From the sequence record NZ_CP014526.1: 32,967 nt of DNA, one strand, 5' to 3'. The number at the start of each line of letters is the position of its first letter. Positions within the stretch are counted from its first letter, which is position 1. This stretch comes from Haematospirillum jordaniae. The notes under the pieces are model-generated. The model was not told where the DNA came from. It saw only the letters and a program-made list of their open reading frames with translations, and did not search any database. This document shows, piece after piece, positions 4,347 to 29,459 of the stretch. Position numbers and translations under genes: made by a program.

Positions 4347-4828
4347 AGGGCGACCTCCTGCTCGCGCCGGTGGACAAGGCCCCGGCAATTGTTGGCCGGA
4401 TCACGACAATCTTTTTTGCCGACAAAAACCCAGCGCCGCAGATCATGACAACCGCCAGCCCGGTCCCCTTCGTTGATTTTCCGGAAAGCCGTGGACTTGC
4501 GGCAGGCTTCTTGACCAACGTTGAAGCAGAACGAAGCAAGGGCGGCCAGCGCAGATTCAGGCAGCGGGACAGAAATGAATCTTTCGACAGCCTCAAGGCT
4601 TTCAGCCACATCCGCCTGAAGAAGAGATCGGCACGTCTCCGGGGCGGCTGTCTGGCCCGGCGCAACGTCGCGGGTGTGGCCGGAGCAGATAGTCCAGACG
4701 CGGGCGGCATCCTGATACGCGCTCAGGCGTGTCCCCTCATGGCTCGCAATGTACGGCAGGGCGATGGCCATGGCCCCGGCACCACCAGCGACAAGGGCCA
4801 CAACAGCCGCAGGAAGACGGGGAATCAT
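4331..4828 (-). CDS. SAR endolysin, GH24 (T4/P21-type lysozyme) with N-terminal signal-anchor-release domain
   Basis: Likely start is ATG at 4828 (ATGA overlap with the holin stop). N-terminus MIPRLPAAVVALVAGGAGAMAIALPYIASHEGTRL is a Gly/Ala-rich weakly hydrophobic SAR-type helix, followed by the lysozyme catalytic region (E...D/C...T triad context SHEGTRLSAYQDAARVWTICSGHT). Confidence 0.75.
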   Translation of the reverse strand: MIPRLPAAVVALVAGGAGAMAIALPYIASHEGTRLSAYQDAARVWTICSGHTRDVAPGQTAAPETCRSLLQADVAESLEAVERFISVPLPESALAALASFCFNVGQEACRKSTAFRKINEGDRAGGCHDLRRWVFVGKKDCRDPANNCRGLVHRREQEVALCLLS

Positions 4829-5028
4829 GACCGCCCCCGGTGACGGGTCCGAACCAGCGCCCAGTAGCGCGGCACAAGAAGCCCTATCTGAAGGCTGACG
4901 TAAATGAGGGTGCACCATGCTACCAGCTCATTGAGCGAAAACCCCATCCACGACCACATGGCCCCTGCCGCCGCCGGGGCAACACGGAGGGCGGCATCAA
5001 ATTCGTCATGCATCTCACTCAGTCCCAC
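4825..5028 (-). CDS. Holin / pinholin candidate
   Basis: 67-aa protein with one or two hydrophobic helices (AAAGAMWSWMGF...LVAWCTLIYVSLQIGLLV), a charged C-terminus, and translational coupling to the SAR endolysin. It is in the P2 Y position after X. Confidence 0.55.
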   Translation of the reverse strand: MGLSEMHDEFDAALRVAPAAAGAMWSWMGFSLNELVAWCTLIYVSLQIGLLVPRYWALVRTRHRGRS

Positions 5029-5219
5029 AGGCTTATGCGTTTCTTTACAGGGGCGGATACGGGGGGGAGGGTGATGAGCGTTCCGTGCGGCAGGACAAGG
5101 CCAAGATCAGCCAAACCGGGGTTTGCCGCATAAATGCGGGCCGTCATCGCGGTGTCTCCATAGACCCGCAGGGCCAACTGGTCCACGGTCTCGCCGTGCA
5201 AGGATCGAACGGAAGCCAT
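5019..5219 (-). CDS. X: Tail protein X (gpX)
   Basis: 66 aa. The GDTLDxLA-type motif (GETVDQLALRVYGDTAMTARIYAANPGLADLGLVLPHGTLITLP) is typical of the P2 X family; it lies between L and the lysis genes. Confidence 0.65.
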   Translation of the reverse strand: MASVRSLHGETVDQLALRVYGDTAMTARIYAANPGLADLGLVLPHGTLITLPPVSAPVKKRISLWD

Positions 5220-5683
5220 CAGATCAACTCCACAACAATACGAGGCTTACCGCACAGCCTGGCCGTTGCCTCGGCGGCATGGCGAAGGTAGTCACGGGCT
5301 GTAACCTCCAGATCATCCGCACGGCCATGGCCCGACTTTGTGCTGTCAAAGTCACGGGTGGTCAGAAGCAATTCGGCACGGGCGCGGGCGTAAACAGCCC
5401 GCTTGTAGAAAAGGACTTTTTCCGGCACGCCCCCATACGACGTCTGCTCCGGAACCTGATCAAGACATGCTGCTGTCTGCGCAGACCTCCACGCACGAAC
5501 GCCCGCGTTGACCTCCAGAATCGCGGCCTGCACGGCAGCGGCCATCCGATCCGGGCCAAACGTGTCTCCCAGCCCCGTTTGGGACCGGAATTCCGCAAGA
5601 TCGACGTTCGGGAACCAGCCATCATTGGTGATGGTCCGCTCGTAACTCGTGGCCCGAAAACTGGTAGGTACAAGAACAGACAT
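5219..5683 (-). CDS. L: Head completion/stabilisation protein (gpL)
   Basis: 154 aa, directly downstream of M as in P2. Confidence 0.7.
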   Translation of the reverse strand: MSVLVPTSFRATSYERTITNDGWFPNVDLAEFRSQTGLGDTFGPDRMAAAVQAAILEVNAGVRAWRSAQTAACLDQVPEQTSYGGVPEKVLFYKRAVYARARAELLLTTRDFDSTKSGHGRADDLEVTARDYLRHAAEATARLCGKPRIVVELI

Positions 5684-5782
5684 ACGCTTTGATCCATGGT
5701 AGTGGCGGTGACGGCAGAGGACCGTTCAGGGCCTTGGAAGGCTCATCACGTCCCCCGCGCCGTCACCGCGCCGGGGGGCCTG

Positions 5783-6439
5783 CTATGTCCCTTCGTCCGA
5801 TGCAACAGAAAGCCGCCTCAATCGCGCCAGATGGCTCCGTACACCGCACTTCGGATGGAGGGCGAGCGCGGCCTCGAAATGATCCATTGCCTTGACCGGG
5901 TTGCCGTCCATACAGGCAAGGCCAAGCGCCTTGTGTGCCTTTGCCCTCACTTCGTCCGGCATGTCGGCCTCCTGCGTCAGGAGCAAGGCCCGGTCCAGCG
6001 GTGCTGCGTGCAGCGGGTCCGGATCAGGGCGCTCGAGCGCAACATCCGCCATCTGCTCAAGCAGTGTGGTGGGCAGATTCCGGGTGAAACCGGGCGGCAT
6101 GCTCAGATCATGGCGAACAGCGTAATCCGCAATGTGCAAAGCCCCCTCAAGATCACCCGTATCCAGACGCCACAGCATGACCATCGCCAGAACATCGTCC
6201 TGTGCACCGCGCCCGCCTTCAAGGACACCATCGACATAATCCGTATAGGCGGGCAGGAATTCGGCCTTCGCCGCCGTCTTTGCCGTACGTGACTGCTTGG
6301 TTTTCAGAACAGATGTATGCAAACGTAACTGTGCCTGCATTTTTTCAGATGACGACCGGGCCGCCATACGGTCCATGGGGTCGCTGGCATCGTGGCGGGC
6401 CGCCATTGTACGGATGAAATGTTGACGGGCCGGCGACAT
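5783..6439 (-). CDS. M: Terminase small/endonuclease subunit (gpM)
   Basis: Inside the 5783..6493 ORF; the likely start is the internal ATG near 6439 (MSPARQHFIRTMAAR...), abutting the capsid gene stop. P2 order N-M-L. Confidence 0.7.
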   Translation of the reverse strand: MSPARQHFIRTMAARHDASDPMDRMAARSSSEKMQAQLRLHTSVLKTKQSRTAKTAAKAEFLPAYTDYVDGVLEGGRGAQDDVLAMVMLWRLDTGDLEGALHIADYAVRHDLSMPPGFTRNLPTTLLEQMADVALERPDPDPLHAAPLDRALLLTQEADMPDEVRAKAHKALGLACMDGNPVKAMDHFEAALALHPKCGVRSHLARLRRLSVASDEGT

Positions 6440-7467
6440 CACGCCCACCCGTCCTGGCCGTCCGGGAGCAGAATGCCTTCGACCAGTGCACACTTGCCCA
6501 TGTCCTCAACAACATACGCCTCGTTGATCGAGAGATAGTCCACGATACGGTCGCGCTTTGGCTCGTCCTCGATGTGACGACGATGGCTTCCGGCCTGCCA
6601 ATAGATGGAGAGGTTCGAAGGCGAGGTAACCAGAACGGAGCGGGCCGGGAAAAACGGCACCGTCAAGGCCGAGCGCCCGCCGATGGTTTTGTTCAGGATG
6701 GTTGTCTGCCACGCCGCCCGCTCGGTCGGCGCATCGGCGGTCGGGTTATTGATCATGGACAGGTAACGGTCGTTCAACAACTGGTTGCCGACGATGACCA
6801 CGATCGACGGATCGCCCCGATGATGCTCCGCAACAAGCTCGTTGCAGACATCAAAGACCAAGGCATCCAGATTGCGGTAATCGGCGCCCTTGGCCTCGCC
6901 CATCTTTTTTCCGGACATGACACGCGCCGGGGCATCGGTGCGCAGATGCTGAAGCCAGCCGATGTTCACATCTTGCAACAAGGTATTCGTAACCGGGTTT
7001 GTATTTGCGGCTGCTGACGTTCCGTTCCAGCCAATCATGAGCCGGTCACGGGCTATCTGCCGGGTTACGTGATCCCTGATCCGTGCGTGAAAATCCGGAA
7101 ACTTCGCCCAGCTATCCAGAAGGGCATAGGGAACGAAGGTGTCAAAATCCGTCTTCCGGCACGTGTACTCGCGCTTCGTCAAGCCTGTGACCGCGCGGGG
7201 CTGCCTGTCCTTCTCGGCGGTATTGGTACGCCCTGCCACAGGGCCGGAGGCACCAAGGCCCAGAATCTGTCCTGACTGCTCAGTCCGGGAGATCATGTTG
7301 ATGCTCTGGAGGAAATCTGCGCTGTCCTGAATGCGGTCTTCCAGCGTTTGCTCGACGGTCGGGTCGATTGAGAATTTTGTACTGGTACTCTCCACGCCGT
7401 TCAGGCGCGAAAGCTGGTCGGTATAGGTCTGGAACAGGGCACGGGTCTTGTTATGCATGATCAGCAA
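6439..7467 (-). CDS. N: Major capsid protein (gpN, P2 family)
   Basis: 342-aa ORF at the P2 N-family size, downstream of scaffold gene O. Confidence 0.9.
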   Translation of the reverse strand: MLIMHNKTRALFQTYTDQLSRLNGVESTSTKFSIDPTVEQTLEDRIQDSADFLQSINMISRTEQSGQILGLGASGPVAGRTNTAEKDRQPRAVTGLTKREYTCRKTDFDTFVPYALLDSWAKFPDFHARIRDHVTRQIARDRLMIGWNGTSAAANTNPVTNTLLQDVNIGWLQHLRTDAPARVMSGKKMGEAKGADYRNLDALVFDVCNELVAEHHRGDPSIVVIVGNQLLNDRYLSMINNPTADAPTERAAWQTTILNKTIGGRSALTVPFFPARSVLVTSPSNLSIYWQAGSHRRHIEDEPKRDRIVDYLSINEAYVVEDMGKCALVEGILLPDGQDGWA

Positions 7468-8398: not shown

Positions 8399-10174
8399 AT
8401 GACATGCCTCACAGACAGCATAGAAACGGACACCTCAACGCGCCTAATTGCCCGAAATCTGTTCTGGCAGGGCTACACGGTTGCGGAAATATCCCGCACT
8501 TTGTCCCAGCCCTACGGCACCATTGACGCCTGGAAACGCCGGGATGCATGGCAGGACGCGCCGATACTGACGCGCATAGAGGGGCACGTTGAAACCCGCC
8601 TTATGCGACTGGTGGTCAAGGAGCAGAAGACAGATTCCGACCTTGCGGAGATTGACAATCTTGCACGCATTCTGGAGCGCACGGCCCGCATACAACGCTT
8701 CAAGACAACGGGCCGGGAGTCCGACCTCAACCCGGCCCTTGAGAACCGGGCAAAGGGACGGCGCCGGAAGCGGGAGGAGCAAAACGCCATCAGCGATGAG
8801 CAGGTCTGCACTTTGCGCCACGATTTTCACGCCAATCTGTTTGACTACCAGAAGTACTGGCACAGCGTGCGCCATAACCGGGCGCGCAACATTTTGAAGT
8901 CTCGTCAAATTGGTGCCACGTGGTATTTCGCACGGGAAGCGTTTCTCGATGCGGTAGAAACCGGCGATAACCAGATCTTCCTGAGCGCCTCAAAAGCACA
9001 GGCACATGTTTTCAGGAGCTACATCGTTCAGTGGGCCAAGGATGCTGCCGGTATAGAACTGAAAGGCGATCCTATTGTTCTTGCCAACGGGGCCACACTT
9101 TATTTTTTGGGTACCAACAGCAAAACCGCACAGTCCTACCATGGACACGTATACCTCGATGAGTACTCGTGGATCGCAAAATTCCTGGAATTCCGGAAAG
9201 TCGCATCAGCCATGGCGACGCACAAAAAGTGGCGACTGACTTATTTCTCGACGCCATCCGTAATCGGCAGGGATGCTCACGCCTTCTGGTCCGGGGCCGC
9301 CTGGAACAAGGGGCGGGCGAAGGCAGACAAGGTTGACTTGGATACCTCGCACACAGCCCTCAAGGCGGGGGCCACGGGACCGGATGGGCAGTGGCGGCAG
9401 ATTGTTACAATTGAAGATGCAGAGGCGGGCGGCTGTAACCTGTTCGATATTCCGAACCTCAGGCAGGAATACAACGAACAGGATTTCAGGAACCTGTTCC
9501 TGTGCGAATGGGTTGATGACACCACCTCGTTCTTCACCTTCGAGGAAATGCGCCGGTGCATGGTGGACAGCTGGGACGAATGGAGCGATTTCGCCCCGGA
9601 CCTTGCCCGCCCCTTTGGCGACAATCCGGTATGGATTGGTTACGATCCTGCCCAAACCGCTGACAACGCCTCTGTGGTGGTGGTCGCACCTCCGGCCATG
9701 GATGGCGGCAAATTCCGGGTTATCGAAAAACTATTTGTTAACGGTCAGGATTTTCAGGAGCAGGCAAACCGCATTGAAACACTGACCCGACGCTACAACG
9801 TAGCGCACATCGGCATTGACACCACAACCATTGGCGCTGGTGTTTACGAAATGGTGCGCCGTTTCTTTCCGCAGGCCCGCGCCATTACCTACAGCGTCGA
9901 AGTAAAAACCAGAATGGTCCTGAAAACCAAGCAGTTGGTTACCCGTCGGCGTCTGGAGTTCGACGCGGGTTGGACCGATGTTGCCGCCGCTTTCATGGCC
10001 ATTCGCCGCACCACAACAGCTTCTGGACGGCAAACAACTTTTTCCGCCGGTCGGACCAAGGAAACGGGACACGCCGACGTGGCATGGGCCGTGATGCATG
10101 CAATAGATCGCCTGGATTTCGACGGCTTTGAAAAGGCCGAGGGATCTTCGCACGGATTCATGGAGTTTTTCTGA
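8399..10174 (+). CDS. P: Terminase large (ATPase) subunit gpP
   Basis: 591-aa ORF, the size of P2 gpP, first gene of the P-Q operon. Confidence 0.9.
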   Translation: MTCLTDSIETDTSTRLIARNLFWQGYTVAEISRTLSQPYGTIDAWKRRDAWQDAPILTRIEGHVETRLMRLVVKEQKTDSDLAEIDNLARILERTARIQRFKTTGRESDLNPALENRAKGRRRKREEQNAISDEQVCTLRHDFHANLFDYQKYWHSVRHNRARNILKSRQIGATWYFAREAFLDAVETGDNQIFLSASKAQAHVFRSYIVQWAKDAAGIELKGDPIVLANGATLYFLGTNSKTAQSYHGHVYLDEYSWIAKFLEFRKVASAMATHKKWRLTYFSTPSVIGRDAHAFWSGAAWNKGRAKADKVDLDTSHTALKAGATGPDGQWRQIVTIEDAEAGGCNLFDIPNLRQEYNEQDFRNLFLCEWVDDTTSFFTFEEMRRCMVDSWDEWSDFAPDLARPFGDNPVWIGYDPAQTADNASVVVVAPPAMDGGKFRVIEKLFVNGQDFQEQANRIETLTRRYNVAHIGIDTTTIGAGVYEMVRRFFPQARAITYSVEVKTRMVLKTKQLVTRRRLEFDAGWTDVAAAFMAIRRTTTASGRQTTFSAGRTKETGHADVAWAVMHAIDRLDFDGFEKAEGSSHGFMEFF

Positions 10175-11118
10175 TGAGTTTGGAAACCTTTACCTTTGGC
10201 GACCCCCTTCCGGCCATCGACCAAAGAGACATAATGGGCCTCTTCCATTCCGCGTGGTCCGGCAAGTGGTATGAACCGCCCATGAGCTTTGAAGGCTTGG
10301 CTAAAGCGCTGAATTCCAATCCACACCACCAGAGCGCCATACACTACAAGGCGTCACTGCTTGCATCACGATTCAGACCGAGCCGCCTTTTATCGCGACA
10401 GGACTTCCGGCGGCTGGCACTGGATTTTCTTGTGCTTGGAAATGCGTGGGTCGAACGCCGTCAAAACCGCCTTGGCTCGACACTCCGTCTCCAGCCAACG
10501 GTGGGACGCTGGACGCGCGTGACACGAGATGGCGCGGTTGTCCTTCACGAGGGGCAGGATTATGCGATCCGCGCCCCCCATGTCCTGCACCTGATGAATA
10601 TCGACATCCACCAAGAAATCTACGGTATGCCGGACTACACCGCTGCCTTGCAGAGCGCATTTCTGAACGAAGCCGCAACCCTGTTCCGGCGGCGCTATTA
10701 CCTGAACGGCACACACGCGGGCTTTATTCTTTACATTAGTGATCCGCTCAACAGCCAGGATGACGTGGAGAAGCTGCGGGACCAGATGAAAGGGGCCAAG
10801 GGCATCGGGAATTTCAAAAACATGCTCTTGTACGCCCCGAGCGGCAAGAAAGATGGCGTACAACTGATCCCTATTTCTGAGGTCGCCGCCAAGGACGAAT
10901 TTTTCAGCATGAAAAACGTGACGCGGGACGACATTCTGGCCGCCCATCGCGTCCCGCCACAACTCCTTGGTATCGTGCCTTCGAACGCCGGTGGATTTGG
11001 ATCTGTCGAGAATGCTGCCGCCGTTTTCATCGACAACGAGATCAAACCGTTAATGACGGCATTTGAAGTGGTCAATGACTGGTGCGGTGAACAGGCTGTT
11101 GCGTGGATCGAAGCATAA
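10174..11118 (+). CDS. Q: Portal protein gpQ
   Basis: 314-aa ORF with an ATGA-type junction with P; portal-family sequence. Confidence 0.85.
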   Translation: MSLETFTFGDPLPAIDQRDIMGLFHSAWSGKWYEPPMSFEGLAKALNSNPHHQSAIHYKASLLASRFRPSRLLSRQDFRRLALDFLVLGNAWVERRQNRLGSTLRLQPTVGRWTRVTRDGAVVLHEGQDYAIRAPHVLHLMNIDIHQEIYGMPDYTAALQSAFLNEAATLFRRRYYLNGTHAGFILYISDPLNSQDDVEKLRDQMKGAKGIGNFKNMLLYAPSGKKDGVQLIPISEVAAKDEFFSMKNVTRDDILAAHRVPPQLLGIVPSNAGGFGSVENAAAVFIDNEIKPLMTAFEVVNDWCGEQAVAWIEA

Positions 11119-11179: not shown

Positions 11180-11650
11180 TCAGCGCATGGTGAGGCGGCG
11201 GGGCTTCTGAGGCCGGGGCGCGCCCTCTTCAGCGATTGTGTAGTCTTGAGATGCTGCGGGAATTCCCATTTCGCGCCGGGCCAGATCAGCAAGAAAGGCC
11301 GATCGTGTAAGGCCTCGCTCCTTGGCGGCCTGGTCCGTGGCGTCCAGTAATCCGGCATCCATGGTGATATTGGCGCGCACCGTGCGCCCGGTCAGATGGA
11401 TAAACGGCACGGCCAGCAGAAAAGCTCCATTTTTTAAATCTGCCTGAACATCCCGCAGCCGTCGCACGACCTCAAGGGAGCGGGCACGCGGTATGCGCTC
11501 TCCCTCCAGGTGTAGGGCCACAGCCTCGGCGGCATTGGGAAGAAGCTCATCCAGCGTGTCGGCGGCTGAGAAACATCCGGGGACATCCGGAAAGTGTATC
11601 CCGTAGGCACTGTTTTCATCTTGGTGAACAACACCGATGTAATAACGCAT
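11180..11650 (-). CDS. hicB: HicB-family antitoxin (RNase-H-like N-domain plus C-terminal RHH)
   Basis: MRYYIGVVHQDENSAYGIHFPDVPGCFSAADTLDELLPNAAEAVALHLEG is a typical HicB N-domain. C-terminal NITMDAGLLDATDQAAKERGLTRSAFLADLARRE is RHH-like. Sits downstream of hicA. Confidence 0.75.
   Translation of the reverse strand: MRYYIGVVHQDENSAYGIHFPDVPGCFSAADTLDELLPNAAEAVALHLEGERIPRARSLEVVRRLRDVQADLKNGAFLLAVPFIHLTGRTVRANITMDAGLLDATDQAAKERGLTRSAFLADLARREMGIPAASQDYTIAEEGAPRPQKPRRLTMR
11185..11225. other. Candidate cos site (cohesive-end region)
   Basis: About 70 bp past the Q stop sits GGTGAGGCGGCGGGGCTTCTGAGGCCGGGGCGCGCC, resembling the P2 19-nt cohesive end as recalled (GGCGAGGCGGGGAAAGCAC). P2 cos lies about 80 bp from the end of Q. 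A 9-bp-arm inverted repeat GAGTATTGC...GCAATACTC lies just before it (about 11121..11163). Confidence 0.3.
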
Positions 11651-11665
11651 GAACGTCTCTCCTGC

Positions 11666-11893
11666 CTAAAGTAAACCGGCCTGCCGATAAATCTGACGCA
11701 CTGTACCAATCGGAAGGTCCTTTTTGGGATGCGGTACTGTGACAGTCCGGTCCTCGCATTTGAACTTGTGATGGGATCCGGTAGTTCCGACCAGTTCAAA
11801 GCCATGGGCCTCCAGAAGCTTGATCAGTTTTCGGCTGTTTGTCTCAAACACGGTGCCGCTTTGCCTCCCCTTACGCCCAAGGATTATACGCAT
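11666..11893 (-). CDS. hicA: HicA-family mRNA-interferase toxin
   Basis: C-terminus KLIKLLEAHGFELVGTTGSHHKFKCEDRTVTVPHPKKDLPIGTVRQIYRQAGLL is the HicA signature. Start chosen at the ATG near 11893; alternatives are 11923 or an internal start. Confidence 0.65.
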   Translation of the reverse strand: MRIILGRKGRQSGTVFETNSRKLIKLLEAHGFELVGTTGSHHKFKCEDRTVTVPHPKKDLPIGTVRQIYRQAGLL

Positions 11894-11923
11894 TATGATA
11901 CACACGGTCAAGCTTTGGCGCAT

Positions 11924-11939
11924 TATAATACGTATTATA
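11924..11939. promoter_or_regulatory. Palindromic operator/promoter of hicAB (TATAATACGTATTATA)
   Basis: Perfect 16-bp palindrome overlapping TATAAT boxes immediately upstream of hicA. The related direct repeat CGCATTATGATAC is about 30 bp away. Confidence 0.4.
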
Positions 11940-12065
11940 TTCGGGAGAGTGCCCGGCGCAGCCTCACATAGAGGCAGCGATGACGGGACAGCAAAGCAAG
12001 GCAGATACCGCATGCATCCAGCGTGTCAGTAAGGATGGGACGGACACAGCCGCGCCCGCAATAAA

Positions 12066-12100
12066 GACCATTTTCGCAGCGTCACGAAAATGGTGGTGAG
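12066..12100 (-). terminator. Hairpin downstream of the mazEF-like operon
   Basis: ACCATTTTCG-N8-CGAAAATGGT, a 10-bp-arm inverted repeat just after the toxin stop. The T-tract is weak. Confidence 0.3.
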
Positions 12101-12107
12101 ATCTTGC

Positions 12108-12431
12108 TCACCCGAACCCGAGGAACAGCGCCAAAGCCCTATTCACGCTGACCATGGTTTTATCATCCAGCCTGCCAAAAGCCTCGCCCACCTTGTCACG
12201 ACGCACGGTCATAACCTTGTCGACCATGATCTGTGAGGGCTTGCGCAGCCCGTTGTCAGTATCCGGAACAATATCCATGCGGATCAGCGGTGCATCAACC
12301 AATGTGCCTGTCATCAGCAGAACCGAGACGGTTGCCGTCTCAATAAACTGATCGGATTGGATCACCAAGGCCGGGCGCGGCTTCCCGAAGTCGCCCGGCA
12401 AGGAGATAGTCACAAGATCACCGCGCCTCAA
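12108..12431 (-). CDS. PemK/MazF-family endoribonuclease toxin
   Basis: MRRGDLVTISLPGDFGKPRPALVIQSDQF... is a classic MazF/Kid N-terminus. 107 aa. Confidence 0.8.
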   Translation of the reverse strand: MRRGDLVTISLPGDFGKPRPALVIQSDQFIETATVSVLLMTGTLVDAPLIRMDIVPDTDNGLRKPSQIMVDKVMTVRRDKVGEAFGRLDDKTMVSVNRALALFLGFG

Positions 12432-12652
12432 GGTTGCGCCTCATCGTCCAGATCGAGAAGAGCCGCGTCCATAAAGTCATACAAACCAGCGTCTGCCCTG
12501 TCCGCGCGAGCCACAACATGGGCTTGGCGCTGGCATTCCTCTCTGAAACCCGGTTGGCGGGTATCAGGAATCCATATCTGGACTGGCCGGAGTCCCGCAG
12601 CCCTCAGAGCAGCCCGGCGCTTGTTTACCCGCCCAGAGACTGGCGTTGGCAT
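12428..12652 (-). CDS. Cognate antitoxin (MazE/PemI-like, small DNA-binding)
   Basis: 74 aa with a 4-nt overlap with the toxin; acidic C-terminus; RAALRAAGLRPVQIWIPD motif. Confidence 0.55.
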   Translation of the reverse strand: MPTPVSGRVNKRRAALRAAGLRPVQIWIPDTRQPGFREECQRQAHVVARADRADAGLYDFMDAALLDLDDEAQP

Positions 12653-12678
12653 GGGGGCCTCCTGTATATAAGCCTACG

Positions 12679-12692
12679 CGTTACATGTAACG
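12679..12692. promoter_or_regulatory. Operator palindrome CGTTACATGTAACG upstream of the mazEF-like operon
   Basis: Perfect 14-bp palindrome next to TATATA, about 30 bp upstream of the antitoxin start. Confidence 0.4.
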
Positions 12693-12751
12693 TAACCGAT
12701 GGTGGGTGGAGGTGTCAAGACCAGTCTCTTTCCGCGCTTTTTTTAGACCTA

Positions 12752-12835
12752 TCCAGCGAAGACAGCTCACAGCCTTATGCAACTAAATTCAGTTGCATTT
12801 AAAGGATCCTTTCCCTATACTGGGGGCACAAGCTA
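12752..12835. repeat. Direct repeat copy A (about 80 bp), containing the hicAB-2 promoter/operator
   Basis: GCGAAGACAGC..CAGCCTTATGCAACT(A/G)AATT(C/T)AGTTGCAT.TAAAGGATC.TTTCCCTATACT recurs at 13600..13680. It contains the inverted repeat TGCAACTNAATTNAGTTGCA and a TATACT -10-like box, followed by a Shine-Dalgarno and hicA-2. Confidence 0.6.
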
Positions 12836-12849
12836 GGAATTAAGGTGGC

Positions 12850-13104
12850 ATGAACAGGCGTAGCAAGCTGGTGGACCGTTTCCGGGCCTGCCCCAAGGAC
12901 TTCACATGGAAAGAACTGGTGAAGGTTCTGGAAGGCTTTGGGTACACAGAGGTCACCGGCGGCAAGACAGGTGGTTCGCGTCGTCGTTTTATCCATCCCG
13001 ATGCCGCCTCCCTTTCCTTGCACAAGCCGCATCCAGGGACCATCCTGAAGCTGTATGCGCTCGAAGCTGTTTTACAGCATCTGAAAGACGAGGGCCTTCT
13101 ATGA
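12850..13104 (+). CDS. hicA: HicA-family toxin (second copy, long form)
   Basis: FTWKELVKVLEGFGYTEVTGGKTGGSRRRFIHPD...LHKPHPGTILKLYALEAVLQHL is the HicA/YcfA fold signature. Confidence 0.7.
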   Translation: MNRRSKLVDRFRACPKDFTWKELVKVLEGFGYTEVTGGKTGGSRRRFIHPDAASLSLHKPHPGTILKLYALEAVLQHLKDEGLL

Positions 13105-13529
13105 AGACAATGATGGAGTACAAAGGGTATTACGGAAGCGCTGAGTTCAGTCCTGACGACGAGGTTTTTCACGGAAAGCTCGAATTCATCCGCGATCTGG
13201 TCACCTATGAATCAGACGACGCCAAAGGTCTGAAGCGGGCCTTCCATGAAGCCGTTGATGATTACTTGGCGCTTTGCCATGAAAATGGACGCAAGCCGCA
13301 AGTCCCCATGAAAGGCTCCTTCAACGTCCGGGTCGGGCGCGACCTGCATCGCCGCGCCATGCTGAGCGCTCATCGACATGGCGTGGGACTGAACGACACC
13401 GTAACAGAGGCCCTGCGCCGCTACCTGGACGAAGTGGACGAACTGTTACCGGAGCATCTGCGCCATGGCATGCCGGAAGCTCAGGAACACAATGACAAAC
13501 CTGGGCGGCGTCCGCTCGCCTCACGGTAA
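13101..13529 (+). CDS. hicB: HicB-family antitoxin (second copy)
   Basis: ATG at 13101 overlaps the hicA stop (ATGA). N-domain MKTMMEYKGYYGSAEFSPDDEVFHGKLEFIRD... and C-terminal RHH (SFNVRVGRDLHRRAMLSAHRHGVGLNDTVTEALRRYL). Confidence 0.7.
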   Translation: MKTMMEYKGYYGSAEFSPDDEVFHGKLEFIRDLVTYESDDAKGLKRAFHEAVDDYLALCHENGRKPQVPMKGSFNVRVGRDLHRRAMLSAHRHGVGLNDTVTEALRRYLDEVDELLPEHLRHGMPEAQEHNDKPGRRPLASR

Positions 13530-13550
13530 AAGCTGGTAACGGCAGCATCC

Positions 13551-13612
13551 GTGCCGTTTTCCGCCGCTATAGCGGCGCTCCAGAGCGCCTTCCTGAACGA
13601 GGCCGCGAAGAC
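13551..13612 (+). pseudogene. Orphan fragment of a portal (Q-like) gene
   Basis: Encodes ...AAIAALQSAFLNEAA, matching gpQ residues ...YTAALQSAFLNEAA (10640..10680) at about 75% nucleotide identity. It is fused directly to repeat copy B, and no full portal ORF is present there. Confidence 0.5.
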
Positions 13613-13680
13613 AGCCCGCAGCCTTATGCAACTGAATTTAGTTGCATATAAAGGATCTTTTCCCTATACTAATGGCACGG
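13600..13680. repeat. Direct repeat copy B (partner of 12752..12835)
   Basis: Same ~80-bp unit with the TGCAACTGAATTTAGTTGCA inverted repeat. No gene follows on the plus strand. Confidence 0.6.
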
Positions 13681-13932
13681 CAGGAAAAGCAGAAAAAAAC
13701 GAAGTCTCCCCCCGCCACGCTTGCGGCTTAAATATGCCTCACATTCTGCAGTGCAGAGAGTGCCTCTACGCCAGCAGTTGCCTTGCTTTCCACGCACCAT
13801 GGAGACCTGTCAAATCTCTGCATTTTTCTGCTGTTATTCTGCAGTACGCCGCACGGTGATTAACAGGCCGCCAAGGCAATAGCCTATCAACATTACCATA
13901 TCCCCATATTTGTAAATTTACGCATTGCCATA

Positions 13933-14178
13933 TCAGGCGATTGGCGGATAATCATACTTCTTGAACAAATCATTCAGCGCCTCGGTTACAAGCTCCTTTA
14001 TCGAGTTCCGCCGCATCTCAAGTCGCATTTTGTCAACTTGGTAATGCGCCTCTGCCGGTATCTCGACGATCAATTTCTTTGTCGGTCGCTCAATTGGCGT
14101 AAGCCCCGGGTCAATGGTGACAGGCGTTTTAGGCGTGAGTTTATTATGCAATGCAGCGTGCAGGCTTGGCTTTGCCAT
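13933..14178 (-). CDS. parG: ParG-like RHH partition protein (centromere-binding)
   Basis: From the internal start: MAKPSLHAALHNKLTPKTPVTIDPGLTPIERPTKKLIVEIPAEAHYQVDKMRLEMRRNSIKELVTEALNDLFKKY. This is a small basic protein with an RHH fold, immediately downstream of parA. The start is uncertain (overlaps parA by about 35 nt). Confidence 0.5.
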   Translation of the reverse strand: MAKPSLHAALHNKLTPKTPVTIDPGLTPIERPTKKLIVEIPAEAHYQVDKMRLEMRRNSIKELVTEALNDLFKKYDYPPIA

Positions 14179-14803
14179 GTGTCTTGCTCTCCATCTGGTT
14201 AATAATAAAACGGTATAATGCTGCGATTTCTTCGGCGGCTTTACTGTCTGATCCAAGCTCCTGAACGCCCTTGCCCATTGTGAAGGCATGAACAAAGGCC
14301 ATGCGATTGCCAATGGTGACGGGGGCAAGCGCAACGCCGTACCCTCTGATCGCCTCGGCGGCCTCCTCCGTAAGACTCCCGCGCGGTGGAGTTTGGGTCA
14401 GAACGGAAACAGCGGGCTTGCCTGCAAGCTGGGCTATTTTCACACTCGAACTGATTGCGCGTAGATCAACAAGCGACGGCTTGCACGGGATCAAGATCAG
14501 GTCAGCAAAGGCAGCGGCATCCAGAGCATCTTTTTGTGAGTGCGGAGCCGTATCAAAAATGACAAAGGCTGCTCCACTCTGGCGGGCAGTTTCGATGTAA
14601 TGCGGAATGCGGGCGGCATGAAGGGAAATGACTGCGGGTGACTCATCGTCTCGGCTGTCCTTCCACCCCATAGACGATGCCTGCGGATCAAGATCGAAGA
14701 TTGCGGCCGCCCTACCATCACGTTCAGCAGCGATTGCAAGATTAATGGCAAGGGTCGTTTTACCGGCCCCTCCTTTTTGCGATATGACAGCTATTGTCCT
14801 CAT
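14144..14803 (-). CDS. parA: ParA/ParF-type partition ATPase (small type Ib)
   Basis: Deviant Walker A box KGGAGKTT near the N-terminus (MRTIAVISQKGGAGKTTLAINLA). About 219 aa. Confidence 0.8.
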   Translation of the reverse strand: MRTIAVISQKGGAGKTTLAINLAIAAERDGRAAAIFDLDPQASSMGWKDSRDDESPAVISLHAARIPHYIETARQSGAAFVIFDTAPHSQKDALDAAAFADLILIPCKPSLVDLRAISSSVKIAQLAGKPAVSVLTQTPPRGSLTEEAAEAIRGYGVALAPVTIGNRMAFVHAFTMGKGVQELGSDSKAAEEIAALYRFIINQMESKTHGKAKPARCIA

Positions 14804-14804
14804 A

Positions 14805-15060
14805 CCATATCCCCATATTGCCACATTTAATGTTTTTTACATGGCCATATTTACTGATTGTCATACTGCCATAATTATCCAAATTTACAACCCCTTATCA
14901 GGGTACACCTTCGTCGTCGTAAAAAACGTTGTAAGCGTCTTTGCATTCGTCAGAGCATAGCTCCTGCACGTCCACCGATACTATATAGGTATACTTATGG
15001 GGGATTATTTCAGCCGTATCGCGATGCTAAGGCTTTAATCATTAATTGGTGTATACGTAT
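14805..15060. repeat. AT-rich repeat array upstream of parA (candidate centromere/par operator)
   Basis: Multiple (T/G)GCCATA(T/A) and CCATAT motifs (ccatatccccatattgccacat..ggccatatttactgattgtcatactgccataatt). The 16-mer ACCATATCCCCATATT recurs downstream of parG at about 13889. Confidence 0.35.
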
Positions 15061-15353
15061 TTATTTATGATAAAAAGAATACCTTGAACTATAAAATACA
15101 ACATATGATTTTTGAAGTTAGATTCATCCATGAAAAAGATGACTCAATAAACTAAGTCAGATTAATAGCATTAATGGGGTTGTCAGAAAAAAGCCTCTGT
15201 GCTGACATGTAGACCACATTCAACTTCACCTGTATCGATATCAGCGTCATTCACAAGCACAGCTAGAAAAAGCTGATCCGTTTTAATGTTTAGGAACAAT
15301 GGAAAACCAAGCATCACTTGCGTGGGACAACATCAGTACGAGAGAAAATTATA

Positions 15354-15743
15354 ATGTCGAAGAAACGTGTTTTTGTAAGTTTTGACTACGACAATGACAA
15401 TGAATTAAAGGAATTGCTCGTTGGGCAAGCAAAAAATCCCGACACGCCGTTCGAACTCGCAGACTGGTCTATAAAAGAACACCTGACAGGGGATTGGAAA
15501 GATAAAGCAAAAAAAAGAATTCGGTCTGTAGACCAAGTAATTGTTCTCTGCGGCGAGAGCACACACAAGGCAAATGGCGTTGCCGATGAACTTAGAATAA
15601 CTCAAGAAGAGGGAAAAGATTATTTCTTGTTGAAAGGTTATAAGGATAAAGAATGTACAAAACCGACATCAGCTCTTAAAACAGATAAAATGTATACATG
15701 GAATTGGGACAATCTCAAGGCGTTAATAAATGGGAACCGCTAG
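15354..15743 (+). CDS. TIR-like domain protein (DUF1863/ThsB-like)
   Basis: MSKKRVFVSFDYDNDNELKELLVGQAKNP... and VDQVIVLCGESTHKANGVADELRITQEEGKDYFLL match the DUF1863 TIR-like hallmark (RVFISF-DYD start; vivLiGe-T---WV--Ei motif with the catalytic-position Glu). The gene and its surroundings are markedly AT-rich compared with the rest of the window. Confidence 0.7.
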   Translation: MSKKRVFVSFDYDNDNELKELLVGQAKNPDTPFELADWSIKEHLTGDWKDKAKKRIRSVDQVIVLCGESTHKANGVADELRITQEEGKDYFLLKGYKDKECTKPTSALKTDKMYTWNWDNLKALINGNR

Positions 15744-15748
15744 ATCCC

Positions 15749-16249
15749 ATGATTGGCGTCTGGAACAGAGAAAGCAAGGATTGCATCGAACGCGAAAAAG
15801 AGATCGCAACAGAGCAATACAAACTTTATGTTGAGATGGCTGATAAGATCAGCGATCGGCGCGTACATGCAAACAAATTTTATGTTGCCCTCAATTCTAG
15901 CCTAATAGCTTTTTACGGCTTCGCTACAGCCAAGAACTCCATCGTCCAAAATGATTCTTGGCTGTATCTAGTGCTTATAGCCGGAATTCTTATTTGTTTT
16001 TTGTGGATCGAAACCGTCAAATCATACAAGAATATTAATACAGTCAAATTCAAGGTGATACATGAAATAGAGGAACACCTTCCTCTTGCACTATATAAAT
16101 ACGAGTGGGAGCTTGCCAAGCAAGGCGATGGATCAAAATACCGCCCTACATCGCATATTGAAATGATTGTTCCATGGGTATTTGGATTTCTTTACGTAAT
16201 AATTGTATCATGCAAATGCTACTCTTATTTTTTTGAACTTTATCATTAA
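15749..16249 (+). CDS. Small membrane protein with 2-3 TM helices, SLATT-like; candidate effector partner of the TIR protein
   Basis: Starts 5 nt after the TIR stop (same operon). Hydrophobic helices FYVALNSSLIAFYGFATA, WLYLVLIAGILICFLWIETV and IVPWVFGFLYVIIVSC, with a charged N-terminal helix and a helical segment between TM2 and TM3. The size (~166 aa) and topology fit SLATT-type 2TM effector domains that associate with TIR/SMODS/SLOG genes. Same low-GC composition as the TIR gene. Confidence 0.45.
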   Translation: MIGVWNRESKDCIEREKEIATEQYKLYVEMADKISDRRVHANKFYVALNSSLIAFYGFATAKNSIVQNDSWLYLVLIAGILICFLWIETVKSYKNINTVKFKVIHEIEEHLPLALYKYEWELAKQGDGSKYRPTSHIEMIVPWVFGFLYVIIVSCKCYSYFFELYH

Positions 16250-16254
16250 ATGTC

Positions 16255-16300
16255 CTTGATCGGGGGCGATGTTTGCCGGACCCCGATCAAGCGATTTATT
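16255..16300 (+). terminator. Rho-independent terminator after the TIR/TM operon
   Basis: CTTGATCGGGG-N-CCCCGATCAAG stem followed by a TTTATTTTT run. Confidence 0.5.
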
Positions 16301-16455
16301 TTTCTTAAAGCACCTACGCATAAACGGCCATTTACAAGCCGGTCCGGTTTCGAGACACCGGGCACGGCAACAGGCGGCGTCCACGCTCTCAAAAACCACG
16401 CTTGAAACCATGTCGGTTCTTGGTGATGTTTACGATGCGTTTTGAGGGAGATGTC

Positions 16456-17010
16456 ATGCTGATCGGCTACGCCCGCGTTTCGACGCGAGACCAGACCACA
16501 GAGCTACAGACAGAGGCGTTGTCGGCAGCCGGTTGCGAGCGCGTGTTCGAGGACCAGACCAGCGGCAGCCGTGAAGACCGTCCCGGCCTTTCCAGTGCGC
16601 TGGATTACCTGCGCACTGGTGACACACTGGTGGTGTGGAAGCTGGACCGTCTGGGCCGGACCGTGAAGCAGCTTGTGCATCTGGTTGACAGCCTTCAGGC
16701 CCGTGGCATCCACTTCCGCAGCCTCACCGACGGCATAGATACCGGAAGCCCGGCAGGCCGGTTCTTCTTCCACATCATGGCCAGCCTTGCCGAGATGGAG
16801 CGCGACCTGATCGCCGAAAGAACACGCGCCGGACTGGACGCCGCCCGGAAAGCCGGACGCAAAGGAGGGCGCCCCGCAAAGATGACCCCCGGCAAGATCA
16901 CGGCAGCCCGCAAGCTTCTGGAAACCGGAACACCCGCCCGCACCGTCGCCGAGAGTCTCGGCGTGTCACCCGCTACACTGTACCGCTGGCTGCCTGCCCA
17001 GACGGCTTAG
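16456..17010 (+). CDS. Small serine recombinase (resolvase/invertase family)
   Basis: MLIGYARVSTRDQTTELQ...GDTLVVWKLDRLGR is the catalytic Ser motif and resolvase N-domain, with a C-terminal HTH (VAESLGVSPATLYRWL). Likely start at 16456 with Shine-Dalgarno GAGGGAG. 184 aa. Confidence 0.85.
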   Translation: MLIGYARVSTRDQTTELQTEALSAAGCERVFEDQTSGSREDRPGLSSALDYLRTGDTLVVWKLDRLGRTVKQLVHLVDSLQARGIHFRSLTDGIDTGSPAGRFFFHIMASLAEMERDLIAERTRAGLDAARKAGRKGGRPAKMTPGKITAARKLLETGTPARTVAESLGVSPATLYRWLPAQTA

Positions 17011-17016
17011 CGTGCT

Positions 17017-17550
17017 TTATTTTCCGTTTTCTGAGACGCCGCTTTTATCAGCTATAGCTTCGCGCAAGAGAGCGTTAAGTCGGTCCTGCCATCCATCGCC
17101 CTCAGAGTGAAGATACTCAAGGATATCAGGATCGAGACGAACGGGTGCTGTTCTTGTTACACGCGCCAAGGGAGAACAGCCGCTCCGTACGGGGATTTTT
17201 TCAAGCGCTTCTGCCCATTCAGGGATATCTGTGTCCTGTTCTTGTTTTTCTACAGACATTTTCTGAATGGCCAGTCTCAAACCCATGGTGCGCAAAATCG
17301 CCATCAAGCTGCGAATCTCCGGGTTTCCTTTGTGCGACAGGGTACGATACAACTGGTTCGGGTTCAGCGCTGCCGCCTTTGCCACCTGACGCACCCCCCC
17401 GAATGCTGCGGCCATCTGGCGCAGAGCTATCAGCAGTTCCCCTTGATCACCATCTTCCAGAATGCTGTTCAGCAATGCCTCGGCATAAGCAGGATCATTA
17501 CGAAACACTTCTGCCATAGCTGTATCATGTTCCCGGTCTTTCATTGTCAA
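17017..17550 (-). CDS. HTH antitoxin (addiction-module antidote family) with a C-terminal BrnA-like extension
   Basis: The N-terminal ~100 aa (FRNDPAYAEALLNSILEDGDQGELLIALRQMAAAFGGVRQVAKAAALNPNQLYRTLSHKGNPEIRSLMAILRTMGLRL) match the antidote partner of RelE/ParE-type killers. The C-terminal ~70 aa (VRLDPDILEYLHSEGDGWQDRLNALLREAI) resemble the BrnA motif. Immediately downstream of the toxin. Confidence 0.55.
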   Translation of the reverse strand: MTMKDREHDTAMAEVFRNDPAYAEALLNSILEDGDQGELLIALRQMAAAFGGVRQVAKAAALNPNQLYRTLSHKGNPEIRSLMAILRTMGLRLAIQKMSVEKQEQDTDIPEWAEALEKIPVRSGCSPLARVTRTAPVRLDPDILEYLHSEGDGWQDRLNALLREAIADKSGVSENGK

Positions 17551-17556
17551 ACCTCT

Positions 17557-17874
17557 TTAACGTTTCTGCCAGTCTTGCCAGTACGAACAAGCGCGCTCAA
17601 TGTCGGCCTTCTGCCTTCGCTTGTCCCCACCGCAGAGCAGAAGGACAATTTCCTTGCCTGCTCTTGCAAAGTAAACGCGATAGCCTGGACCAACGTCGAT
17701 GCGCAGCTCATACACACCATCACGCAATGGTTTATGATCACCAAAATTACCGAGTTCCATGCGGTAAATACGACGATCAATGGCAACCAGGGCCTTGGTG
17801 TCCCGTATTTGCTCACGCCATTCGGCAAAGTGGTCCCGGCCATTTGAATCGAGATAGTGTCGTATCGTCTGCAT
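17557..17874 (-). CDS. RelE/ParE-superfamily toxin (addiction-module killer)
   Basis: 105 aa, upstream of the HTH antitoxin with a 6-nt gap. Sequence features are typical of the killer-protein family (MQTIRHYLDSNGRDHFAEWREQI...GVYELRIDVGPGYRVYFARAGKEIVLLLCGGDKRRQ). Confidence 0.7.
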   Translation of the reverse strand: MQTIRHYLDSNGRDHFAEWREQIRDTKALVAIDRRIYRMELGNFGDHKPLRDGVYELRIDVGPGYRVYFARAGKEIVLLLCGGDKRRQKADIERACSYWQDWQKR

Positions 17875-26975: not shown

Positions 26976-29459
26976 CTAGTCCTCCTCGTCATACATGCGG
27001 GCGCGTGCATTCGACCGTTCGCGGGCCATCATCTTTTCAAGCTCAAGGCGGACTGCACGCGCTATGTCTGTTTCGGACTGTCCCGCAGCCGCATGAATCG
27101 TGATGGATACGCCGCCCATATCAACACCATGGCCCGAAGGGGCCTTGGCAACGGCTGCGCCGGAAACCGTTGCGGCGACACCGGCGGTTGCTGCAACCTT
27201 GACCGTCTTTTTGGCCAGATCACCACCAACGCCGGACAGGGCGCTTCCGGCAGCAGACACGGCTTCACCAAAGCCGCCGGTCAAGCGGGCAATCATATCG
27301 CTGACCCAAACCAGTGGGGCCTTGATCGCTTCGATCCCGCTTGTAATGCATCCCCAAGCCTGCGCAAACGTGTCGGACAGCCCCTGCCACAAGGCACCCA
27401 GATAACCGGCAATCGGCTCCCAGTTTGAAACAACAAGTCCAAGCGGGGTCCAGGCAAAGGCCGTCTTTATGACGTCCCATGCGCCAGCAAAAATACCGGA
27501 CACACTCTGCCAGAGGCGCGCGAAGAAAGCCTTGATCGGCTCCCAGTACACAACAATCAACGTAACGGCAGCGGCGATGGCCATGACCGCCAGCACAATG
27601 GGGTTCATCAGGAATGCGAGATTCAACTGCTTTACCCACGTCAGAAGAGCCGGAAAGACAGTTTTGGCCACCGCCCCCATAAACCCGATGGCCCCGGAGA
27701 ACAGACCGACACCACCCCCGGCAAGTCCGGCCTTGATGCCAAGCGAAACAACCGCGAAGCGCAGAATAGCAATGGGGCCTATAATGGCAGCCGCAACGGT
27801 TGCAAGGATACCGCCGACCAACACAAGTCCAGCAACAGATGCGGCAACCTTGAACAGGGTCCCGGCCAGTGCCGGGTTGGCCTTGACCCATTCCGCTGTC
27901 GACCGCACCACAGATGTTGCGGACTGAACAAGATCGCGCAATGGAGAGGTCTGGGTTTGGGACAGGGTGATATTCAGGCCCTCGACCGCTGACCAGAAGC
28001 CCTGAATATCCCCGGCGGCATTGTCCCCCATTGTTTTGGCCAAGCGACTGGCCTCGCCCCCGGCTTGTTTCAGAACCTCTGAAAATTTGCTGATAGCCCC
28101 CTCACCCTCACGCTCCACCAAGGACGCCATGGCCGCCCCGGCTTCGGTTCCAGCAATCGCCGTGAAGGCGGCCAGACGATCCGCACTCCCCAAGTCCTTG
28201 GTACCCTTGGCCACATCCGCCAGTATTTCTGTGATGGGGCGCATGTTGCCCGCCGCGTCCTGAGTCGCGACCGACAACTCGAGCAATGCCTTCCGCGCAC
28301 CGCCCGGCGGGCTGGCAAGGCGGGAAAACAGGGCACGCAGGGCTGTACCGGCCTGGGCACCCTGTATCCCGATATTGCCCAACAGGCCAGACATGGCCGA
28401 GACATCCTCGACCGACGCCCCGACCTGACGGGCAATCGGTGCGGTATACTTCATGGTTTCACCCAGCATCCCAAGGTCCACATTGGCCCGCGTAAAGGTT
28501 GCGGCCATCACGTCCCCGAGCCGTGACATTTCCGCAGCCTCAAGGCCAAAGCCCGACAGGATATTGCTGGCGATGTCGGCAGCCTCACCAAGGTTGGTAT
28601 TGCCTGCTTTTGCGAGATCGAGCATGCCGGGCATAGAAGCCAGGATCTGTTTTGCATCGAAACCGGCCATAGCCAGCTTTTGCATACCTTCAGCCGCTTC
28701 GGACGCCGAGAAACTGGTTGTTGCCCCCAACGCCATCGCCTGCTGTCCCAAAGCCGCAAATTCCGCCGATGTTTTGTCGAGCCGGGCGACAGCGCCAACG
28801 GCTGACATTTGCTTCTCGAAGGCAATTCCGTCGCGCAAGACCACACCCATTCCGGCCAGCATTCCACCTCCGGTTGCAACACCGCTGGCTCCGGCCATCG
28901 CCAAGCCACCTGCCCGAGCCGTTGCCCGATCCATACGGCTGCGGGCAATGGCTGTCGCTGTTGACTTCTTTTGCAGGGCCTCAAGTGCGCTGGCTTGGCC
29001 CTCCGCAGCCTTCTGGACTGCACCCAGATCCTTCTTCAGGGCTTTCTGTGCCGAAGCCAGTTTACGTGTATCAATGCCCGCCAAAGACAATTCACGCCGC
29101 ATGGAGCTTGTTTTTTTTGCCAAATCAAACTGAGACTGCTCCAGCCTCTGAACCTCTTGGCGCGCGAAGGCAAATGCACGCTTCGCTTTCTTGCTGTCCT
29201 CTCCACCAGCCGCCAGCGCCCGTCCCAGATCACGGGCCTTGCTCCGCGCCGCATCCAGAGATGATGTGTTGTCCCGGAGCATTTTTTTGAGTCGGGAGAA
29301 TTCACCAACGCCCGCAGACTTTTTGTGCAACGTCTGTAACTGCTCGGACGTCCCACGCATGGCCTCCTTCAGCTTCTCCGCCGATGACCGCGCCGTCTTG
29401 AAAGGCGCGGTCATCTTGTCGACCGCCGCCATGGTTACCTGAATCTTCAAATCACTCAC
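26976..29459 (-). CDS. T: Tail tape-measure protein gpT
   Basis: 827-aa Ala/Gly-rich, coiled-coil-rich ORF with a hydrophobic central segment. Follows E/E'. Confidence 0.85.
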   Translation of the reverse strand: MSDLKIQVTMAAVDKMTAPFKTARSSAEKLKEAMRGTSEQLQTLHKKSAGVGEFSRLKKMLRDNTSSLDAARSKARDLGRALAAGGEDSKKAKRAFAFARQEVQRLEQSQFDLAKKTSSMRRELSLAGIDTRKLASAQKALKKDLGAVQKAAEGQASALEALQKKSTATAIARSRMDRATARAGGLAMAGASGVATGGGMLAGMGVVLRDGIAFEKQMSAVGAVARLDKTSAEFAALGQQAMALGATTSFSASEAAEGMQKLAMAGFDAKQILASMPGMLDLAKAGNTNLGEAADIASNILSGFGLEAAEMSRLGDVMAATFTRANVDLGMLGETMKYTAPIARQVGASVEDVSAMSGLLGNIGIQGAQAGTALRALFSRLASPPGGARKALLELSVATQDAAGNMRPITEILADVAKGTKDLGSADRLAAFTAIAGTEAGAAMASLVEREGEGAISKFSEVLKQAGGEASRLAKTMGDNAAGDIQGFWSAVEGLNITLSQTQTSPLRDLVQSATSVVRSTAEWVKANPALAGTLFKVAASVAGLVLVGGILATVAAAIIGPIAILRFAVVSLGIKAGLAGGGVGLFSGAIGFMGAVAKTVFPALLTWVKQLNLAFLMNPIVLAVMAIAAAVTLIVVYWEPIKAFFARLWQSVSGIFAGAWDVIKTAFAWTPLGLVVSNWEPIAGYLGALWQGLSDTFAQAWGCITSGIEAIKAPLVWVSDMIARLTGGFGEAVSAAGSALSGVGGDLAKKTVKVAATAGVAATVSGAAVAKAPSGHGVDMGGVSITIHAAAGQSETDIARAVRLELEKMMARERSNARARMYDEED

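Follow-up and report, generated by a model that had tools for sequence, protein, structure and literature searches.

A TIR and 8xMP membrane-protein cassette with the type V Thoeris layout on a P2-like phage genome of Haematospirillum jordaniae

The AT-rich cassette and its two proteins

The 32,967-bp Haematospirillum jordaniae sequence NZ_CP014526.1 (the whole stretch analysed here, hereafter "the window") includes an AT-rich cassette of two open reading frames (ORFs) on the + strand, gene A (15354-15743) and gene B (15749-16249). An earlier reading made from the letters alone (defined as the "sequence-only reading") had described the pair as a horizontally acquired, translationally coupled candidate module for phage defence, with a TIR-like protein and a SLATT-like membrane protein and a terminator of its own. 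Both ORFs lie where that reading had placed them. The region from 14830 to 16260 has a GC content of 38.0%, against 58.1% elsewhere in the window, in agreement with the claimed difference of about 20 percentage points, and the description of a horizontally carried two-gene module stands. In detail, GC content is 39.5% in gene A, 38.3% in gene B and 36.1% in the spacer upstream of them, and third-position GC is 0.39-0.40 in the cassette versus 0.61-0.73 in parA and the resolvase gene on either side.

The AT-rich spacer (14825-15353, no strand assigned) separates gene A from a divergent parA-like gene and, judged by its composition, is presumed to hold the promoter and regulatory region. We did not locate a promoter in it; sigma-70-like matches were weak and no better than those in shuffled sequences, and no Rfam family of structured RNA matched the spacer and cassette region. 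The stop codon of gene A (TAG) is separated from the ATG of gene B by 5 nucleotides (nt). An alternative upstream ATG at 15698 would extend gene B to 183 amino acids (aa), but the N-termini of 35 homologues favor the start at 15749. Directly 3′ of gene B, the two-gene operon is closed by an intrinsic-terminator-like hairpin and U-run (16252-16306, + strand). The hairpin itself (16252-16295, CUUGAUCGGGG...CCCCGAUCAAG) has a GC-rich stem of 11-14 bp and leads into a U-rich tail. Its fold of -23.9 kcal/mol (z = -3.7) was equaled in stability by none of 200 shuffles, which bears out the claim of a terminator specific to the pair. A simple terminator scan missed this hairpin because its loop is longer than 8 nt.

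Gene A encodes a stand-alone protein of 129 aa, starting MSKKRVFVSFDYDND, that passes the threshold of the Pfam profile ThsB_TIR (PF08937; 34.7 bits, cut-off 21.2). The TIR motifs quoted in the sequence-only reading are present, and its assignment of gene A to the ThsB/DUF1863 type is supported by this Pfam match and by the fold. The AlphaFold2 model, based on 30 homologues, has a predicted local distance difference test score (pLDDT) of 88 and shows the alternating beta-alpha arrangement of the TIR/flavodoxin-like fold. Its best Foldseek matches are BcTir (PDB 8fz9, template modelling score 0.72), ThsB in the ThsB-Tad3 complex and EcThsB. The NADase TIRs of SPARTA and SARM1 are also among its structural neighbors. 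About 1,900 relatives of gene A were found in the database, many of them also 129 aa long and 65-77% identical.

The characterized member of the TIR clade of gene A is PsTIR, a type IV Thoeris enzyme that produces the cyclic ADP-ribose (cADPR) isomer N7-cADPR and in which the E79Q substitution abolishes defense (Rousset et al., bioRxiv 10.1101/2024.10.24.620036). Gene A is 32% identical to PsTIR and 61% identical to one TIR listed as type IV. The putative catalytic residue of gene A, Glu79 in the motif GVADELR, aligns with Glu79 of PsTIR and is conserved in at least 90% of the 30 homologues. TIRs with the motifs of gene A belong to cluster 2635319349 in Table S1 of a recent survey of Thoeris systems (Yirmiya et al., bioRxiv 10.64898/2025.12.03.692087, December 2025), and the partners listed first for this cluster, in the portion of the table used here, are labeled "Caspase - Type IV." By sequence and model, gene A is a ThsB-type TIR with what appears to be the catalytic Glu in place.

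Gene B encodes a protein of 166 aa that matches the Pfam "Octameric membrane protein family (8xMP)," PF24838, over profile positions 2-134 of 136 (E = 1.1e-41, 142.3 bits, cut-off 30). Relatives of gene B are named "RipA family octameric membrane protein" by NCBI; for gene B, "octameric" is a family name only. The family is large, with 4,133 representatives at 50% identity (E ≤ 1e-3), and no solved structure was related to it by sequence or fold. Hydrophobic segments at residues ~44-61, 72-91 and 140-162 correspond to three transmembrane (TM) helices. The AlphaFold2 model of gene B (pLDDT 85) has helices at 13-61, 70-108, 115-122 and 135-165, so arranged that a long N-terminal helix runs into TM1 and, after a short loop, TM2 continues into a cytoplasmic helix that is followed by a conserved loop and TM3. 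Based on the distribution of Lys and Arg residues, the N-terminus and the TM2-TM3 loop are predicted to be cytoplasmic. Among 120 homologues, residues conserved in at least 95% include Y24, Y27, S35, R37, R38 and N42 in the N-terminal part, and a second cluster that includes S92, Y93, N97, K100, F101, H105, E108, P112, E119 and W120. These conserved residues, R37, R38, K100 and H105 among them, are concentrated in the predicted cytoplasmic parts.

The length of about 166 aa and the two or three TM helices that the sequence-only reading gave for gene B are borne out, with three helices. Its assignment to the SLATT group is not: no SLATT family matched gene B at E ≤ 1 or any of eight relatives at E ≤ 10, the Pfam match being to PF24838 instead. 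Gene B also has no match in PADLOC-DB 2.0 (E ≤ 1) or in NCBIfam, and the only PADLOC-DB 2.0 models that match gene A are ThsB and PDC-M50B, all weakly. Rst_2TM_1TM_TIR and the other systems of that collection were thus rejected as identities for the cassette.

Genomic linkage of TIR and 8xMP genes

We examined the pairing from both sides. On the 8xMP side, 80 loci from 80 species of Pseudomonadota, Bacteroidota, Nitrospirota, Patescibacteria and archaea were collected. Two of these are at contig ends. At 50 of the 78 assessable loci (64%) a TIR gene is adjacent on the same strand, nearly always directly upstream, and the remaining 28 have no adjacent TIR. The TIR partners fall into two families, one similar to gene A and the other with the motif YNLFISHSW. 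The loci without a TIR include L008, L010, L049, L050, L057, L061-L068 and L076-L080, many of which are from Patescibacteria (Saccharibacteria, Paceibacteria and Nomurabacteria).

On the TIR side, the sample consisted of the 80 metagenomic TIRs most similar to gene A (59-70% identity). The next gene encodes an 8xMP protein in 33 cases and a caspase-like protein of ~325 aa in 36 cases; six TIRs are at a contig end and five have another neighbor. A Peptidase_C14 caspase domain was found in 24 of the complete examples of the ~325-aa protein that were scanned. Two of the five loci scored as "other" (L136 and L149) have an ORF matching 8xMP that overlaps the TIR gene and thus was not counted as adjacent. 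The distance from the TIR stop codon to the 8xMP start is between -4 and +6 nt in 32 of 36 related pairs. Therefore, the tight coupling that the sequence-only reading noted for the H. jordaniae pair, with its 5-nt gap, is a conserved property.

TIRs of the partner groups are interspersed, with identity averaging 0.62 inside a group as well as across groups and reaching 90% between TIRs whose partners differ; the nearest-neighbor TIR has the same partner in 80 of 95 cases. The operon linkage of TIR and 8xMP is conserved in many phyla, and at the level of sequence the linkage pattern is the signature expected of effector swapping inside one signaling family. The TIR and 8xMP pair was also detected on five IMG/VR viral contigs.

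Several individual loci have unusual arrangements. In L138 (1082-2700), a TIR gene, a caspase gene and an 8xMP-like gene occur in series, placing two effectors behind one TIR; the 8xMP-like gene is truncated (36.6 bits). In a Longimicrobiales locus (L023, 4357-6826), a YNLFISHSW-type TIR and 8xMP pair is followed directly by a TIR of the gene A type and a caspase gene, so that a type V-like pair is beside a type IV one. One protein of 299 aa (P0486) has an N-terminal ThsB_TIR and a C-terminal 8xMP domain; it is either a genuine fusion or a product of merged gene calls. The order is reversed in L142 (2413-4378) and L145 (2517-4482), where 8xMP precedes the TIR gene and a WYL-domain regulator follows.

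Relationship to type V Thoeris and alternative explanations

Yirmiya et al. (2025) widened Thoeris to eleven validated types. Type V consists of ThsB and ThsF, the latter a three-TM protein annotated as DUF2270 (PF10028), which AlphaFold3 models as a ring resembling a channel, with positively charged pockets where protomers meet. The type V system of Bacillus thuringiensis defends Bacillus subtilis; its TIR makes 3′cADPR, and 3′cADPR added externally is toxic to cells that carry the system. A second Bacillus type V system also defends, yet 3′cADPR does not trigger it (Yirmiya et al., 2025).

Among the "DUF2270 - Type V" rows that we draw on from Table S1 of that study is a TIR of Moritella sp. 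PE36 (IMG 2501723643, cluster 2635319349). In the Moritella locus (L036), the sole membrane protein is encoded by the gene directly after the listed TIR. It matches PF24838 (139.8 bits) and has no match to PF10028. The Moritella TIR is 61% identical to gene A, and the Moritella 8xMP protein shares 42% identity with gene B. Type V as used by the authors therefore includes the pairing of TIR and 8xMP: the layout is already catalogued in the preprint as type V Thoeris, and the H. jordaniae cassette is a new example. The sequence-only reading had considered the layout similar, but not obviously equal, to those of the named Thoeris and Rst_2TM_1TM_TIR systems; the distinction is correct for Rst_2TM_1TM_TIR and, given the Moritella ortholog, incorrect for Thoeris. 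Upstream of its ThsB-like TIR, the Moritella locus (4190-6153) has another small TIR gene, and downstream of 8xMP a gene for a 177-aa protein that was not assigned to a family.

Rows labeled "DUF2270 - Type V" also contain TIRs of the YNLFISHSW family (Yirmiya et al., 2025), at least in the portion of Table S1 considered here, where this family occurs under both "3TM" and "DUF2270 - Type V." Whether the "3TM" effector class is 8xMP is ambiguous, as among the rows considered "3TM" appears only with YNLFISHSW TIRs.

To compare gene B with a validated ThsF, we located that of B. thuringiensis DAR 81934 as the gene after P0241 (L176, 3773-4198). The 8xMP proteins and validated ThsF have the same order of three TM helices and a common motif in the N-terminal helix, Y.EM....S.R...N.F. 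PF10028 matches one of four Bacillus-type ThsF proteins, with an E value of only 0.031. We also followed relatives of ThsB from B. thuringiensis in search of a plasmid-borne ThsF; the Bacillus cereus and Priestia plasmid loci that were found have no small membrane gene after the TIR.

The cassette resembles type V Thoeris in that a small TIR is followed by a three-TM protein of ~140-180 aa, for which, in ThsF, a ring is predicted by the authors. It differs in that the validated members come from Bacillus, have TIRs of other clusters and have a ThsF whose similarity to PF24838 is marginal, whereas the cassette is borne by a probable phage-plasmid in an alphaproteobacterium; moreover, 3′cADPR was shown for one Bacillus system only. 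Type IV Thoeris (TIR and caspase-like protease, N7-cADPR) shares the TIR clade of gene A, with the catalytic Glu aligned, and about half of the close relatives of gene A precede Peptidase_C14, but gene B is a membrane protein and the window contains no caspase-like or other protease gene. The TIR and SLATT layout envisaged by the sequence-only reading is type VII of Yirmiya et al. (2025), which uses canonical cADPR. There too a TIR signal gates a small oligomerizing membrane effector, but gene B has no SLATT match and has three TM helices rather than two. In type II (TIR and Macro-TM effector, His-ADPR), a TIR-made ADP-ribose derivative likewise triggers a membrane-disrupting effector; gene B lacks a Macro domain, and any ligand site would be formed by short cytoplasmic helices of the ring. 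BcTir/BcTpr (PDB 8fz9), the closest solved structure to gene A, is another two-gene operon with a small stand-alone defense TIR, but its partner is a TPR protein and not a membrane protein.

In combination, we consider it probable (about 0.75) that the cassette is a Thoeris-family anti-phage signaling system that has the ThsB plus ThsF ("type V") layout and belongs to the accessory genes of a P2-like phage-plasmid in H. jordaniae. A system in which a TIR signal acts on a membrane effector, as proposed in the sequence-only reading, remains the best interpretation of the pair. By analogy with validated Thoeris systems, on which we base signal production, signal binding, the oligomeric state, membrane damage and phage protection, gene A would sense infection by a competing phage and use Glu79 to convert NAD+ into an ADP-ribose-derived second messenger. 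The messenger would bind to positively charged cytoplasmic pockets of a homo-oligomeric ring of the three-TM gene B protein, pockets that the N-terminal helix (with R37/R38) and the loop between TM2 and TM3 (with K100, K102 and H105) would form. The ring would then breach or depolarize the inner membrane, and the infected cell would stop growing or die before the phage matures (abortive infection).

We tentatively suggest, at somewhat less than even odds, that the TIR and 8xMP subclass uses N7-cADPR or another non-3′ isomer and not 3′cADPR, so that the same signal could gate either a protease or a membrane ring, these two effectors having replaced each other repeatedly within one TIR clade. 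This suggestion is made because the TIR clade of gene A otherwise drives caspase-like proteases and because PsTIR, in the same cluster, makes N7-cADPR. It also draws on the TIRs of different effectors being up to 90% identical and on the locus L138 with its TIR, caspase and 8xMP-like genes in series.

A number of observations weigh against the assignment to Thoeris defense. PF10028 did not match gene B (E ≤ 1) or eight relatives (E ≤ 10). The validated B. thuringiensis ThsF reaches PF24838 with only E = 0.012 and 15.9 bits (cut-off 30; positions 6-130 of 136), and an hhalign comparison of the Bt ThsF-type alignment with the 8xMP alignment was not significant. Because of the missing PF10028 match and this marginal similarity, membership of gene B in "ThsF" rests on the authors' cluster-based table, the labels of which are representative-based and, by the authors' own account, noisy (Yirmiya et al., 2025). 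The type V system of the Gram-negative Vibrio cholerae gave no defense in Escherichia coli (Yirmiya et al., 2025). No PADLOC model as of 2023 matches gene B. In the literature, we found no experiment on this pair or on any PF24838-type effector, and searches for "8xMP," "octameric membrane protein" or RipA together with phage returned nothing relevant except papers on Francisella RipA. The 28 of 78 8xMP loci without an adjacent TIR belong here as well, and the PF24838 family is probably not exclusively immune, because NCBI names it after Francisella RipA, which is LpxA-linked and envelope-associated.

Three other explanations for the pair were weighed. The roles of the two proteins could be reversed, with the membrane protein as a sensor or anchor (e.g., for the injection of phage DNA or stress on the envelope) and the TIR as an NAD+-depleting executioner, as in CBASS, Pycsar and SPARTA. 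Yirmiya et al. (2025) state that the TIR may be an NAD+-depleting effector in layouts that have not been verified, and SPARTA and SARM1 TIRs are structural neighbors of gene A. We regard this as unlikely, given that TIRs up to 90% identical to the 8xMP-linked ones pair with caspase-like proteases and that PsTIR, the characterized member of the clade, is a signal producer. Furthermore, the 129-aa TIR has no extra domain that could take input from a membrane partner, and the layout matches ThsB and effector operons.

A second proposal is that the pair is mainly an addiction or stabilization module of the phage-plasmid, similar to a toxin-antitoxin system, and not a phage sensor; the membrane protein would be set free to act once the element is lost. 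The cassette does lie within a run of toxin-antitoxin modules, beside parA and a resolvase, but the same pair is found in many phyla on chromosomes that lack plasmid functions, 8xMP is swapped with a validated defense effector, and antitoxin-like features (a DNA-binding domain or a labile small protein) are not evident in gene A or gene B, making such a role quite improbable. It is very unlikely that gene B is a RipA-like housekeeping membrane protein related to the envelope or lipid A, with the TIR as an incidental neighbor. In Francisella tularensis, RipA has been studied as a virulence factor; it forms homo-oligomers in the inner membrane, has two cytoplasmic domains and co-precipitates with LpxA. 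Like gene B it is a small inner-membrane protein, PF24838 being tied to it by the NCBI family name, and more than a third of 8xMP loci (28 of 78) have no TIR next to them. RipA differs in its link to virulence and LpxA and in having no reported TIR partner. An incidental neighbor would also leave unexplained the presence of a TIR gene beside 8xMP at 64% of loci in different phyla, the tight coupling, the TIR-8xMP fusion protein, the AT-rich mobile cargo on a phage and the exchange of 8xMP with a caspase-like protease as effector.

As the layout is already described in a recent preprint, the discovery value of the cassette is modest. If the Thoeris assignment holds, the cassette is a compact immune module (~1.5 kb including the terminator) leading from a TIR to a membrane effector, on a temperate P2-like phage-plasmid in a lineage of human-blood isolates, and it connects the Pfam 8xMP/"RipA" family (~4,100 sequence clusters) with Thoeris immunity. 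Because one TIR clade alternates between protease and membrane effectors, the pair is well suited to testing which cADPR isomer gates ThsF-like rings. If the signal is indeed N7-cADPR or another non-3′ isomer, PF24838/RipA proteins would by extension form membrane rings gated by a nucleotide, and the function of Francisella RipA could be seen in a new light.

Context on a probable phage-plasmid

The window, deposited as a plasmid of H. jordaniae, comprises the complete genome of a P2-like myovirus, a context that was absent from the sequence-only reading. We identified genes for the major capsid protein (6439-7467), terminase (8399-10174), portal (10174-11118), tape measure protein (26976-29459) and tail sheath (30491-31663), as well as baseplate genes. 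The element is probably a phage-plasmid, because this phage genome also carries parA and a serine resolvase.

The cassette is located in a dense accessory stretch (11180-17874) 3′ of the portal gene, among toxin-antitoxin modules and before the late regulators. In order, the stretch includes HicAB (11180-11893, - strand), MazEF/PemK (12108-12652, - strand), a second HicAB (12850-13529, + strand), an RHH and ParA operon (13933-14824, - strand), the cassette with its 129-aa thsB-like and 166-aa thsF-like genes, the serine resolvase (16402-17010) and a BrnA/HI1420-type antitoxin with a Gp49/HigB-like toxin (17017-17874, - strand). An Ogr/Delta-type regulator was called further on in loci of near-identical strains (L185 and L186); its position is unconfirmed in window coordinates. 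P2-like phages reportedly carry defense systems in hotspots beside packaging genes, and the location of the cassette fits this pattern.

No close DNA relatives turned up when plasmid and E. coli collections were searched at near identity, and no phage encoding 8xMP was found in INPHARED. Within the species, an identical pair of gene A and gene B is present in other H. jordaniae strains. Comparison of the window with one such strain locus (L187, blastn) placed the right edge of the common segment at 16307-16334. Homology stops at 16334, ~40 nt past the cassette terminator and before the resolvase gene, and L187 continues with YafQ/RelB, ParA and a large serine recombinase, not the small resolvase. 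Given the end of homology and the different genes that follow, we infer that 16334 is a recombination junction.

Finally, a 27-nt direct repeat (TACCATATCCCCATATT..., 85% identical) at 13894-13920 and 14803-14829 flanks the RHH and ParA operon, and its two copies are candidate partition or operator sites.

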